From the sequence record NZ_CP021276.1: DNA of 64,000 nt; one strand, 5' to 3'. The position numbers were made by a program, and so were the translations under genes. The notes under the pieces were generated by a model, which was not told the origin of the DNA, made no database searches, and saw only the letters and a program-made list of their open reading frames with translations. Positions within the stretch are counted from its first letter, which is position 1. Each line of letters starts with the position of its first letter. Below are positions 7,849-10,681 of the stretch, piece after piece. This DNA is from a plasmid.

Positions 7849-8225
7849 TTGGTTCACATTCGGTTCACGTTTTTTCAAGTGAAATGGTTCACAATTAGTT
7901 CACGAACTGCTTGAATATCTACACTGATATTTGTACCACTGAAGCTCATATTCGGCTCACACTTTTGATTTACATGACTCTAAATTAGCTAATATTTAGA
8001 TCTAAATAATGGTACACAAACGGTTCACATAAATGCAGGAGGCTCTTTATTTAATTAGATCAGTTCGAAAACATACCCAATCAGAATATGCAGTTCACGA
8101 TTAATTCAGATCATATTTTCAATTTTAATCAAATACAGAAATGGAATAGCCTAAATGATTTTACTTAAAGGTTCACAAATGGTTCACGTTAAATGATGTT
8201 TATTGGTTCACAAAAGGAACACAAA
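7849..8225. repeat. Iteron array: about 11 copies of (G)GTTCAC(A/G), mostly in pairs spaced 11 bp
   Basis: GGTTCACA/G at 7850, 7861, 7886, 7899, 7954 (GGCTCAC), 8010 (GGTACAC), 8021, 8091, 8170, 8181 and 8204, with a degenerate copy at 8215. Confidence 0.8.
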
Positions 8226-8351
8226 ATAACAATTAAATATATAAAAAAATATTTTATGTATTTTAGTAACTTTATCATTGACCTAAAGAAGTGAGTATGC
8301 AATTGTATGTATTAATACAATAATAATGAAAAAACATACAAGGCACGAATA

Positions 8352-9401
8352 ATGGAACAATTAAGCTGGACTAACTCAGACATTCGTAAATTATTTAAAA
8401 TGGATAATCGATTCAAATCAGTTCAGACATTATATAACGCAGAAGATCGAGGAGAAATACCTACAGCCAAAAGAGAGGCTAGAGGGAAAGTTTCAACTAG
8501 AGTATGGGACTTATATCAACTCCCTGAAATTGGTAAACGATTCGGCTTTTTGAAACCACCAATACAACAAAAGATACTATGTAAATACATGCAAAAAGGA
8601 GGAGTTTACAAAACAACTTCCAGCTATAATGAGGCACGCACTTTAGCACTTAATGGCATTAAAACCATTTTAATAGGCTTGGATCCCGAATGCTCTGTTT
8701 CTGATATAATAATTCCTCAGCAAGAACTTAATAGACTTGATGATTTTGAACAAGCAAAAGGTCTATTTCATTTTTTTGTCGAAAATACGCCATTAGATGA
8801 AATCATTCGTCCCACATCATTACCCACCCTTGATTTCATACCTGAAACACATGATTTGGTAAAATTAAACAAATGGATGTCCTTTGAAAAACGTCGCGAA
8901 TATATTTTTCAGGATAAGTTAATTCCTCTCCTATCCAAATATGATGTCATCATTTTTGATAATAGTCCTACATGGAATCATCTCGTTGAGAACTCAATTT
9001 TAGTTTCTTCATCAGTTATTATGCCATTAGGATGCAGCCTCCTCGCCTATAATGCATCCGCTACTAATATGCAAAACATATGGGATTTTCAAGATGTGAT
9101 GAGGCTAACAAACCAAGGATTAATAATGTTTAGCACGGCTCTTGAGCGAAGCTCTCTTAGCCAACAAATCAATGCAACCTATCTAAGTCGTTATGTTGAC
9201 TACATGATAACAACCCCCATACGCAAGTCTGTAAAATGGGAAGAAGCTCTGATGTCTAAACAGACTATTATAGAATACGCTCTTGGATCTTCTCAAGCAG
9301 AAGAATACTACCATCTAGTTTCTGAGTTATGGGCTAGGGTCAATAATAATGAACATAGCTTTGTCGATTTATTACTAACTAACGAGCTAGAGGCTATCTA
9401 A
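8352..9401 (+). CDS. parA: Partition ATPase ParA, type Ia (SopA-like) with N-terminal HTH extension
   Basis: 349 aa. Deviant Walker A KGGVYKTT (SopA-like), ~100-aa N-terminal extension. Stop overlaps the start of the next gene (TAATG). Confidence 0.75.
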   Translation: MEQLSWTNSDIRKLFKMDNRFKSVQTLYNAEDRGEIPTAKREARGKVSTRVWDLYQLPEIGKRFGFLKPPIQQKILCKYMQKGGVYKTTSSYNEARTLALNGIKTILIGLDPECSVSDIIIPQQELNRLDDFEQAKGLFHFFVENTPLDEIIRPTSLPTLDFIPETHDLVKLNKWMSFEKRREYIFQDKLIPLLSKYDVIIFDNSPTWNHLVENSILVSSSVIMPLGCSLLAYNASATNMQNIWDFQDVMRLTNQGLIMFSTALERSSLSQQINATYLSRYVDYMITTPIRKSVKWEEALMSKQTIIEYALGSSQAEEYYHLVSELWARVNNNEHSFVDLLLTNELEAI

Positions 9402-10681
9402 TGGCTATAAAAAAGGGAGCATTTGAATTATATACACAGGAAAGAAAACTTCCTGAGAAAAAGGAAAGTAGTCATATCAAAAAAAGCCATTTTTTTGATG
9501 ATGTATACTCTAAAAACAAAGGTTCACAATTAGTTCATGAACGGTTCACAACAGGAGAAGGAATACTCACCGAAGATCAACAAAACCATTCGGGCTCTGA
9601 TTCAAACAACAATGGAAATATCGGTTCACAAATGGTTCATGAACGGTTCACGACAGGAGAAGGAAGGCTCGCCGAAGATCAACAAAACCATTCGGACTCT
9701 GATTCAAACAACAATGGAAATATCGGTTCACAAATGGTTCATGAACGGTTCACGACAGGAGAAGGAAGGCTCGCCGAAGATCAACAAAACCATTCGGACT
9801 CTGATTCAAACAATAATGGAAATATCGGTTCACAAATGGTTCATGAACGGTTCACAACAGGAGAAGGAAGGCTCGCCCAAGATCAACAAAGCCATCTGGA
9901 TTCTGATTCAAACAACAATGCAAATATCGGTTCACAAATGGTTCATGAACGGTTCACAACAGGAGAAGAGAGGCTCGCCCAAGATCAACAAAGCCATCTG
10001 GATTCTGATTCAAACAATAATGCAAATATCGGTTCACAAATGGTTCATGAACGGTTCACAACAGGAGAAGAGAGGCTCGCCCAAGATCAACAAAGCCATC
10101 TGGATTCTGATTCAAACAACAATGGAAATATCGGTTCACAAATGGTTCATGAACGGTTCACGACAGAAGAAGGAAGGCTCACCGAAAATCAACGAAACCA
10201 TTCGGACTCTGATTCAAGCAATAATGCAAATATCGGTTCACAATTGGTTCATGAACGGTTCACAATAGGAGAAAGAGGGCTCGCCCAAGATCAACAAAAC
10301 CATTCAGAATCTGAATCAAACAACAATGCAGGTATCGGTTCACAATTGGTTCACACTGATATAAATAATGTTTCATCTGAATTTGTAAAAAAACCTCAAA
10401 TAAGTTTTTCAAAATTAGTTGGCAATCAAAGAGCAATATTAATAGCTCTATATAAGAACATTAAAATTAATAAATCAGATTCAACTGATGAGCTAACCCT
10501 TGAATTGATCTCAGAAATTGCGAGAGTAAATCAAAAATCACTTAAAAACACTTTGTTCAGGTTAACTAATGCAGGGGTACTTATTCGGGTAGATCAAAAA
10601 GTAGGTAGGGGTGGATGGGTAAAGTACAAAATCAACTCTGAAATCATTAAAGAAATTCAACAGAAGGAATTTTTCAGATAA
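9401..10681 (+). CDS. ParB-like candidate centromere/iteron-binding protein: unique N-terminus, 9 x 34-aa tandem repeats, C-terminal winged-HTH
   Basis: 426 aa. Repeat unit GSQMVHERFTTGEGRLAEDQQNHSDSDSNNNGNI; period 102 bp (multiple of 3); substitutions between units without indels. Translationally coupled to parA. C-terminal 110 aa has a wHTH-like pattern. Confidence 0.55.
   Translation: MAIKKGAFELYTQERKLPEKKESSHIKKSHFFDDVYSKNKGSQLVHERFTTGEGILTEDQQNHSGSDSNNNGNIGSQMVHERFTTGEGRLAEDQQNHSDSDSNNNGNIGSQMVHERFTTGEGRLAEDQQNHSDSDSNNNGNIGSQMVHERFTTGEGRLAQDQQSHLDSDSNNNANIGSQMVHERFTTGEERLAQDQQSHLDSDSNNNANIGSQMVHERFTTGEERLAQDQQSHLDSDSNNNGNIGSQMVHERFTTEEGRLTENQRNHSDSDSSNNANIGSQLVHERFTIGERGLAQDQQNHSESESNNNAGIGSQLVHTDINNVSSEFVKKPQISFSKLVGNQRAILIALYKNIKINKSDSTDELTLELISEIARVNQKSLKNTLFRLTNAGVLIRVDQKVGRGGWVKYKINSEIIKEIQQKEFFR
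9521..10440. repeat. 9 tandem 102-bp repeats, each containing a GGTTCAC-AGTTCAT-GGTTCAC triplet at 11-bp spacing
   Basis: Unit starts at 9521, 9623, 9725, 9827, 9929, 10031, 10133, 10235 and 10337. Confidence 0.9.

Follow-up and report, generated by a model that had tools for sequence, protein, structure and literature searches.

A probable ParA-type plasmid partition system whose candidate centromere extends into the gene for its winged-helix binding protein

In the type I partition system par2 of pB171, the centromere arrays parC1 and parC2 flank the operon. TubR and AspA, two partition proteins, bind arrays of short repeats cooperatively. In 1998, Lin and Grossman reportedly located a chromosomal parS site inside the spo0J/parB gene of Bacillus subtilis. 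The 19-bp repeats of the phage lambda origin have internal dyad symmetry. In lambda, the O gene itself contains the origin repeats, to which the DNA-binding half of O binds (PMC4488673), pSK41 Rep has its own binding sites inside the rep gene, in the region encoding a flexible, dispensable linker (PMC5703833), and oriV lies within repC of repABC plasmids (PMC3155836). Described here is a locus from a 64-kb window (the whole stretch of DNA analyzed, sequence record NZ_CP021276.1) of a Legionella pneumophila conjugative plasmid, in which the open reading frame (ORF) downstream of the partition gene parA contains an array of short direct repeats that are also found upstream of parA (Table 1). This ORF and every annotated copy of it examined carry the GenBank label "hypothetical protein." Positions 6700 to 10800 are 100% identical to four complete plasmids of 71 to 77 kb.

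The locus is probably a ParA-type partition system in which part of the centromere lies in the linker-coding DNA of the gene for its winged-helix binding protein. Positions 7750 to 10681 would then constitute a self-contained ParA-type plasmid partition cassette. The protein would consist of an N-terminal peptide contacting ParA, a long disordered linker, and a winged helix recognizing the 11-bp unit GGTTCACAA(A/T)(T/C). Its sites would be direct repeats, all on the same strand, that form one array upstream of parA (perhaps also serving as the operator) and another inside the protein's gene. Three 11-bp repeats amount to 33 bp, or 11 codons, so that a triplet fits in frame, and the encoded peptide GSQxVHxRFT would be a by-product. 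Tandem duplication of a 102-bp (34-codon) unit would have produced about 26 in-gene sites with the frame unbroken, in a linker that would tolerate nearly any sequence. Both arrays flanking parA would be covered by many molecules of the protein, forming a partition complex that stimulates ParA and is moved by it. The gene order is that of type I ParA systems, with a ParA-family ATPase gene heading the operon, the gene for a DNA-binding partner directly downstream, and repeat arrays in cis.

Exact copies of GGTTCAC occurred 31 times in the window, compared with a mean of 4.33 and a maximum of 13 in shuffled sequences (0 of 100 shuffles reached 31), and 25 of the 31 copies were located between positions 7851 and 10354, all on the plus strand. 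When up to one mismatch was allowed, as in all heptamer counts below that are not called exact, 11 copies were found in the 724-bp intergenic region between a rep-like ORF and parA (7851/7862, 7886/7897, 7954, 8011/8022, 8092, 8170/8181, and 8205), at distances of 130 to 500 bp from parA. A twelfth, weaker copy, GGAACAC at 8216, pairs with the copy at 8205, giving four to five pairs with 11-bp spacing. Successive pairs were 24 bp apart at both ends of this upstream array (7851/7862 with 7886/7897 and 8170/8181 with 8205/8216). No GGTTCAC-like heptamer with one mismatch or fewer was found inside parA (8352 to 9401).

The second array was delimited by Tandem Repeats Finder at 9521 to 10353, with a period of 102 bp, 8.2 copies, 92% matches, and 0 indels. 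In each 102-bp unit, the first 33 bp (11 codons) hold three 11-bp repeats and the remaining 69 bp form a variable linker; the triplet has the form GGTTCAC-N4-(G/A)GTTCAT-N4-GGTTCAC. The array contains eight triplets and a final doublet, thus nine motif clusters, with 25 heptamers plus AGTTCAT at 9532, or about 26 in all. It lies entirely within the ORF and in frame (102 bp being 34 codons), and the 11-bp repeats are read in three frames to give the peptide GSQ(M/L)VHERFT in each unit. A preliminary description of this DNA had reported GGTTCAC copies both between the genes and inside the downstream ORF, with about 11 intergenic copies mostly in 11-bp pairs, and the present counts bear this out. 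It had also reported nine 102-bp repeats, each with a GGTTCAC triplet, and about 27 further heptamers in the ORF; the nine clusters, the 102-bp period, and the 11-bp spacing hold, and the count was close, but the units number 8.2, the ninth cluster is a doublet, and the middle heptamer reads GGTTCAT.

The same two-array layout was observed in all 15 of the other complete Legionellaceae loci, each with one array 130 to 630 bp upstream of parA and one in the ORF, and stray heptamers elsewhere in the flanks of these loci numbered at most one. The extended consensus (A/T)(T/C)GGTTCACAA(A/T)(T/C)G and the dominant 11-bp spacing were identical in 160 upstream and 168 in-ORF sites. The Fluoribacter dumoffii plasmid had no 102-bp tandem array, carrying two in-ORF triplets and about 19 upstream copies. 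A 34-codon (102-bp) unit was present, with unrelated linkers, in at least six lineages (the ORFs of the window and of loci L004, L005, L008, L009, and L021); 102 equals 9 × 11 + 3, so the unit length is not divisible by the 11 bp of one repeat. The in-ORF array of the Legionella antarctica plasmid (L021, ORF at 3002 to 4306) was a mosaic of two linker types, with two units resembling the L. rowbothamii/L. lytica type, six units of another type, and a last cluster of motifs whose linker is incomplete or missing, which suggests recombination between arrays of different plasmids.

Codon use in the encoded motif was compared, for 79 motif instances in 18 loci, with use of the same codon elsewhere in those ORFs. 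The codons that spell the heptamer were strongly preferred in the motif, including GGT for glycine (67/70 in the motif versus 59/228 elsewhere), TCA for serine (74/74 versus 115/425), GTT for valine (75/78 versus 105/227), CAC for histidine (62/79 versus 29/106), CGG for arginine (37/38 versus 15/164), and TTC for phenylalanine (51/51 versus 32/146), although tandem copies and related plasmids are not independent and these raw counts overstate the support that they lend to a DNA function. With only the first motif of each lineage counted, the preferences remained significant (binomial test, P = 1e-4 to 5e-8), and the per-lineage counts, together with the co-variation described below, are the sounder evidence. 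The motif residue x varied (L, M, S, or T), with a third base that was nearly always G, the first base of the next heptamer. In the array of the window, columns varied less often in the repeat part (2 of 29) than in the linker (25 of 73; Fisher's test, P = 0.005). The 11-bp spacing places the copies of a triplet in three different frames, so that the DNA is repeated and the peptide has no internal repeat. The motif codons were nearly fixed across 13 Legionellaceae lineages. These comparisons indicate that the in-ORF heptamers are selected as DNA.

Co-variation between the two arrays was found in distant homologues encoded downstream of parA on Piscirickettsia salmonis plasmids. In the first type, GGAACAC had 9 copies ahead of parA and another 9 inside the ORF, where it encodes the peptide NGTQTEHKRNT (AAC GGA ACA CAA ACG GAA CAC AAA CGG AAC AC). 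In the second type, CGTACAC was present 6 times upstream and 5 times in the ORF, with the peptide NRTQTVHKVNT. Each heptamer type was restricted to its own plasmid, except for the single GGAACAC upstream of parA in the window. Across the three repeat types, the residues of the presumed recognition helix read KSLKNTLFRL, RSIKTTIARL, and GAVKTSVARL. Between Legionella GSQTVHKRFT and Piscirickettsia GTQTEHKRNT, valine is replaced by glutamate and phenylalanine by asparagine as TT in the repeat becomes AA. These nonconservative replacements track the DNA repeat, as would be expected of a peptide that follows the DNA, and are hard to square with selection on the peptide. The proposal in the preliminary description that one array doubles as coding sequence and cis site is thus favored by codon fixation, by the consensus shared between the arrays, and by the Piscirickettsia co-variation.

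The array is also translated. Across 13 lineages, the N-terminal 35 residues and the C-terminal domain had conserved amino acids with freely varying synonymous codons; in 57 conserved-residue columns of these flanking domains the majority codon was used in 61% of cases, and a single codon was used in 5 columns. Protein-level constraint with synonymous variation in the flanking domains shows that the ORF is translated, and since no in-frame ATG or GTG occurs between the array and the winged-helix domain, the latter can be made only by translation through the array. The start codon of the ORF overlaps the parA stop codon (TAATG). Within the array, linker changes were spread evenly over the three codon positions (8, 11, and 8) and were mostly nonsynonymous (178 versus 44 synonymous), so the linker peptide is under little constraint.

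Comparison of homologues for repeat number and frame, as the preliminary description had advised, showed the frame intact in every complete homologue, each with 1 to 9 repeats and with linkers differing in sequence and length. Two Piscirickettsia alleles (L028 and L029) differed by exactly one 120-bp unit, a whole-unit change. Frame-breaking indels, which that description had named as evidence for a noncoding centromere, were absent apart from a one-base difference in L025 (CP013770, 3396 to 4264). The L025 ORF, annotated as two coding sequences, lacks one base of an A5 run that is complete in the intact and otherwise identical L029 gene; the split, for which a sequencing error or a very recent frameshift is the probable cause, was rejected as a sign of a noncoding array. 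A second open frame across the array of the window (ORF 9537 to 10268, plus strand, 243 amino acids) was rejected as a gene, the repeat unit happening to have no stop codons in that frame.

The repeats belong with parA and not with the neighboring rep-like gene. The parA product was similar to solved ParA and Soj structures (E = 1.4e-18 to 1e-10) and matched the partition RepA and SopA equivalog models with scores below the family cutoffs. In two sister loci, L026 and L027, the rep-like gene and its leader match the window at about 92% identity up to the terminator-like hairpin at 7719 to 7746, after which the sequences diverge. Both carry 0 to 1 GTTCAC and lack the window's ORF and arrays. 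In their place is another par cassette (4700 to 5660 in L026 and 4750 to 5660 in L027), with a gene for a 213-amino-acid ATPase, a gene for a 93-amino-acid protein, and TGATTGCA-type repeats nearby. The difference is a modular exchange of partition cassettes. The possibility that the repeats are iterons of the adjacent rep gene was rejected, because these plasmids keep the rep-like gene with 0 to 1 GTTCAC and a different par cassette; the comparison indicates that the parA-ORF cassette carries the repeats along with it. In L024, the annotated ParA is a short one of 254 amino acids and the arrays are nevertheless present, which leaves the winged-helix protein as the only evident sequence-specific binder in the cassette.

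Complete homologues of the ORF product share the N terminus MAIKKGAFELYTQERKLP...HFFDD and a C-terminal domain of about 100 amino acids, and their middles are variable, with 1 to 9 GSQxVHxRFT copies and linkers that are unrelated between lineages. The N-terminal peptide was nearly invariant in 24 homologues and may be a ParA interaction motif. The AlphaFold2 model had a predicted local distance difference test (pLDDT) score below 50 for almost all of residues 33 to 329, the repeat region, which is accordingly predicted to be disordered. A Foldseek search with the C-terminal domain returned winged-helix proteins only (the RepA_N N-terminal domain, MarR, AspA, and TubR). The protein ends 5 residues past the winged helix, with no C-terminal effector domain. 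Searches of the ORF product against Pfam, NCBIfam, and PHROG gave only spurious low-complexity or subthreshold matches, and a sequence search of solved structures gave a best E value of 0.06. The gene had been called parB-like, which holds for its position; no Pfam or NCBIfam ParB match was obtained with the full protein or its parts. Membership in the ParB/Spo0J family was rejected, since there is no ParB/Srx domain or ParB-type helix-turn-helix and the model contains only the C-terminal winged helix. A ribbon-helix-helix centromere-binding protein (ParG, omega, or ParR) was rejected as well, given the predicted winged-helix topology and fold matches that were all winged-helix proteins.

A database search yielded 32 homologues and a genome scan 17 loci, nearly all from Legionellaceae. 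A search with the winged-helix domain extended these to 436 representatives of 50%-identity clusters (E ≤ 1e-3). Among the best 150 of the 436, 64 of the 137 new representatives contained a five-residue peptide repeated at least 3 times; the peptide repeats differed between family members, and the units that were read out in full had 11 residues. In the coding DNA ahead of the winged helix, autocorrelation peaked at lag 11, a distance not divisible by 3, in 12 of 14 loci, including those of Bdellovibrio and viral contigs. The Bdellovibrio and viral-contig loci had 7-mers repeated 5 to 20 times, almost solely inside the ORF. A Walker-type ATPase gene was directly upstream in 9 of the 12 further loci examined, besides the window's parA, and the parA-then-ORF order was conserved in Legionellaceae, Piscirickettsia, Bdellovibrio, and viral contigs, often with overlapping genes. 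By these comparisons the family appears to span Legionellales, Piscirickettsia, Bdellovibrio, and viral contigs. That it is a large, unnamed, ParA-coupled winged-helix family (at least 436 clusters at 50% identity) on plasmids and phage-plasmids, with the centromere inside its own coding sequence, is a tentative generalization, conceivable but somewhat short of probable.

Longer relatives were also found (L024, 3503 to 4843; L023, 2300 to 3577; and L030 to L039), with 400 to 500 amino acids and repeats on both sides of the winged helix. An aligned consensus of this long type had an 11-amino-acid period. The long-type relatives contain an extra helical C-terminal domain of about 160 amino acids that was confidently modeled and for which no fold match was found. 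In one of them, a viral contig (L039), the ORF contained 20 copies of CTAGAGA with a period of 12 rather than 11, and a second array of 8 CTAGAGA copies, mostly with 13-bp spacing, was located about 640 bp downstream of the gene (4481 to 4583).

Several observations weigh against partition as the function of this protein, and the greater part of them would fit a protein that is, or descends from, a replication initiator like lambda O or RepA_N, with the arrays as origin repeats and the in-gene array as the origin. Binding sites in the linker-coding region of the binder's own gene are a hallmark of lambda O (PMC4488673) and pSK41 Rep (PMC5703833), and the locus shares with such initiators repeats inside the protein's own gene and an array that maps to the predicted disordered region. 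The resemblance of the winged helix to the DNA-binding domains of replication initiators is weak and consists of a Pfam Phage_rep_O match (E = 0.024; 15.6 bits against a cutoff of 28.7) and of RepA_N N-terminal domains (4pql, 4pt7, and 5kbj) among the top Foldseek matches. PHROG replication initiation families gave weak matches in 2 of 5 long-type proteins scanned (E = 5.5e-6 to 2e-4). Some Piscirickettsia plasmids carry a gene of this family without a recognized rep gene; for two Piscirickettsia salmonis plasmids with ParA-type partition genes, no rep gene was found, and no iterons were identified in that study (PMC6963756). Two further points on the same side concern the repeats: most of the distant relatives have them solely in the ORF, where the 11-nucleotide period is the one indication of a role as DNA, and the partition reading gives no reason why a 102-bp unit should recur. 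Moreover, in the partition reading we infer the binder, the centromere function of both arrays, and the part played by the N-terminal peptide.

For the plasmid in the window, an initiator is nevertheless unlikely. All of the similarities listed are under family thresholds and typical of winged helices, with MarR, TubR, and AspA scoring equally, and neither a Pfam RepA_N match nor a PHROG replication match was obtained for the window protein. The protein stops right after the winged helix and so lacks a C-terminal effector domain. The plasmid possesses a separate rep-like gene whose leader is antisense-RNA-like, and its sisters that share this gene have neither the ORF nor the repeats. The gene for the winged-helix protein is coupled to parA, as in 9 of the 12 further loci. 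For the long-type relatives, an initiator role is conceivable; these proteins might be the missing Piscirickettsia initiators, or a single protein of the longer kind may serve both partition and replication initiation.

The in-ORF sites could also be bound in a purely regulatory capacity, blocking transcription of their own gene, silencing, or acting in handcuffing and incompatibility, with the upstream array alone as the centromere. Selection on the sites as DNA fits a centromere and a regulatory site alike, and a protein bound inside a transcribed gene could hinder RNA polymerase. The in-ORF array, with up to 26 sites, is the larger of the two, however, and in many distant relatives it is the sole array within 5 to 7 kb, so that a regulatory role would leave no centromere near the cassette; this alternative is regarded as improbable. 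Selection on GSQxVHxRFT itself, for ParA binding or self-association, with a functionless resemblance in the in-ORF DNA, has in its favor the conservation of the peptide across Legionellaceae homologues. It is largely refuted, and very unlikely to be correct, given that synonymous codons are fixed, that the variable residue keeps its third-position G, that the DNA has three internal repeats and the peptide none, that intergenic copies share the extended consensus, and that the Piscirickettsia peptide shifts nonconservatively exactly with the repeat. A noncoding, sopC-like centromere between parA and a short winged-helix gene, with the long ORF an accident, can hardly be credited. A second frame is indeed open across the array, which shows how little openness within repeats proves by itself. 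But an in-frame ATG or GTG is missing from the winged-helix region, synonymous codons vary while amino acids are kept in the N-terminal peptide that begins at the parA stop codon, and no complete homologue has lost the frame although their linkers differ; the only broken copy departs from the intact one by a single base in an A5 run.

Table 1. Features of the putative partition cassette and its surroundings (positions in the window)
Feature	Positions	Strand	Basis or remark
rep-like ORF	6791-7627	minus	Weak IncFII-RepA match (E = 2.3e-7), under family cutoff
Terminator-like hairpin, left boundary of par cassette	7719-7746	plus	Terminator scan; L026/L027 homology ends just after
Upstream repeat array, 11-12 (G/A)GTTCAC, mostly 11-bp pairs	7851-8222	plus	Putative centromere arm 1 and operator
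parA, Walker-type partition ATPase, 349 amino acids, N-terminal extension of ~75 amino acids	8352-9401	plus	Pfam AAA_31 (E = 3.9e-27)
Gene for winged-helix protein, 426 amino acids, putative centromere-binding protein	9401-10681	plus	ORF and homologues
Conserved N-terminal peptide MAIKKGAFELYTQERKLPEK...HFFDD, short predicted helix at residues 7-14	9401-9505	plus	AlphaFold2 model, homologue alignment
In-ORF array, eight 102-bp units and partial ninth	9521-10354	plus	Putative centromere arm 2, encodes predicted disordered linker
C-terminal winged-helix DNA-binding domain, residues 335-421	10403-10663	plus	AlphaFold2, pLDDT ~95, H-H-H-E-E-H topology (H, helix; E, strand)

Outside the cassette, IncFII RepA, to which the rep-like ORF is weakly similar, represents a replicon type without GGTTCAC-like iteron repeats. 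Opposite the leader of the minus-strand rep-like ORF, positions 7658 to 7755 contain, on the plus strand, a promoter-like TTGACT...TAAGAT, a 17-nucleotide inverted repeat (7674 to 7716), and then the terminator hairpin. RNA from this segment had a predicted folding energy of -30.8 kcal/mol (z = -5.2), was conserved in L026 and L027, and looks like an IncFII-style antisense control RNA. An Rfam scan of positions 5500 to 11000, including this RNA, found no family at threshold. A 33-nucleotide inverted repeat (6272 to 6365; 85% complementary, with a 28-nucleotide gap) lies about 430 bp past the stop codon of the rep-like ORF and could be part of the origin region. The guanine-cytosine skew profile had no clear switch near the par cassette. 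In the promoter scan, consensus matches were fewer than in shuffled sequences, and none could be assigned as a promoter.

If the partition reading is correct, the gene is its own segregation site, and the disordered linker of its product is largely a by-product of 11-bp DNA sites arranged in threes. This family would then add a new class to the known centromere-binding proteins and would exemplify a general design for partition based on dual coding. It would be a clean case of dual coding, in which the constraint on the DNA comes from its role as a protein-binding site and the peptide follows passively, even nonconservatively. It would also be an unannotated and widespread class of ParA partners on plasmids of pathogens (Legionella and Piscirickettsia) and on phage-plasmids. 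Shifts in site number by in-frame unit duplication would offer a simple route to tuning partition strength or incompatibility. The rule of an 11-amino-acid peptide period with an 11-nucleotide DNA period beside parA could be used to annotate centromeres automatically and could help find the missing maintenance functions of Piscirickettsia plasmids. Partition proteins would thereby be linked with the own-gene-site design of lambda O and RepA_N, which raises the question of shared ancestry.

The preliminary description had known of no precedent. This stands for partition proteins and fails for initiators, as lambda O (PMC4488673) and pSK41 Rep (PMC5703833) carry their own sites. A literature search, in which most subscription journals were not covered, found neither a description of the family nor partition repeats in the binder's gene; binding sites in the binder's own gene are known for replication initiators, and the search is weak evidence that an expandable array in the gene of a centromere-binding protein is unreported. 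Compared with pSK41 Rep and the RepA_N initiators, the window protein has a winged-helix domain and direct-repeat sites in the linker-coding segment of its own gene, with RepA_N domains among its top fold matches. RepA_N proteins, however, are replication initiators that are not coupled to parA and have an N-terminal DNA-binding domain followed by a C-terminal effector domain. In the window, the domain is C-terminal, the gene overlaps parA, a second array lies upstream of parA, and the repeats are 11-bp units in threes read in three frames, without sequence-level membership in RepA_N. The resemblance to lambda O includes the weak Phage_rep_O match and the weak "O-like" PHROG matches of the long-type relatives. 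In lambda, four 19-bp repeats stand beside an AT-rich segment, and the C-terminal domain of O recruits P and DnaB; the window protein lacks a counterpart of that domain, and a separate rep-like gene is present on its plasmid.

Among partition proteins, TubR of type III systems and AspA of pNOB8 have the same winged-helix fold as the window protein, without detectable sequence similarity to it; the partner of TubR is the tubulin-like TubZ, that of AspA is a separate ParB adaptor, and their sites are intergenic. The spo0J gene of B. subtilis is alike in having a centromere site within the coding sequence of its own binder, but its parS consists of one 16-bp palindrome and falls in DNA coding for a structured segment of a true ParB, rather than being an expandable array that dictates a linker. 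The layout also resembles par2 of pB171, in which the ParA gene is followed by a gene for a small centromere-binding protein, with arrays on both sides of parA and the upstream one placed as an operator. Systems of the pB171 par2 type have a ribbon-helix-helix binder and two intergenic arrays, whereas the locus in the window has a winged helix, a long disordered linker, and its second array in coding sequence.

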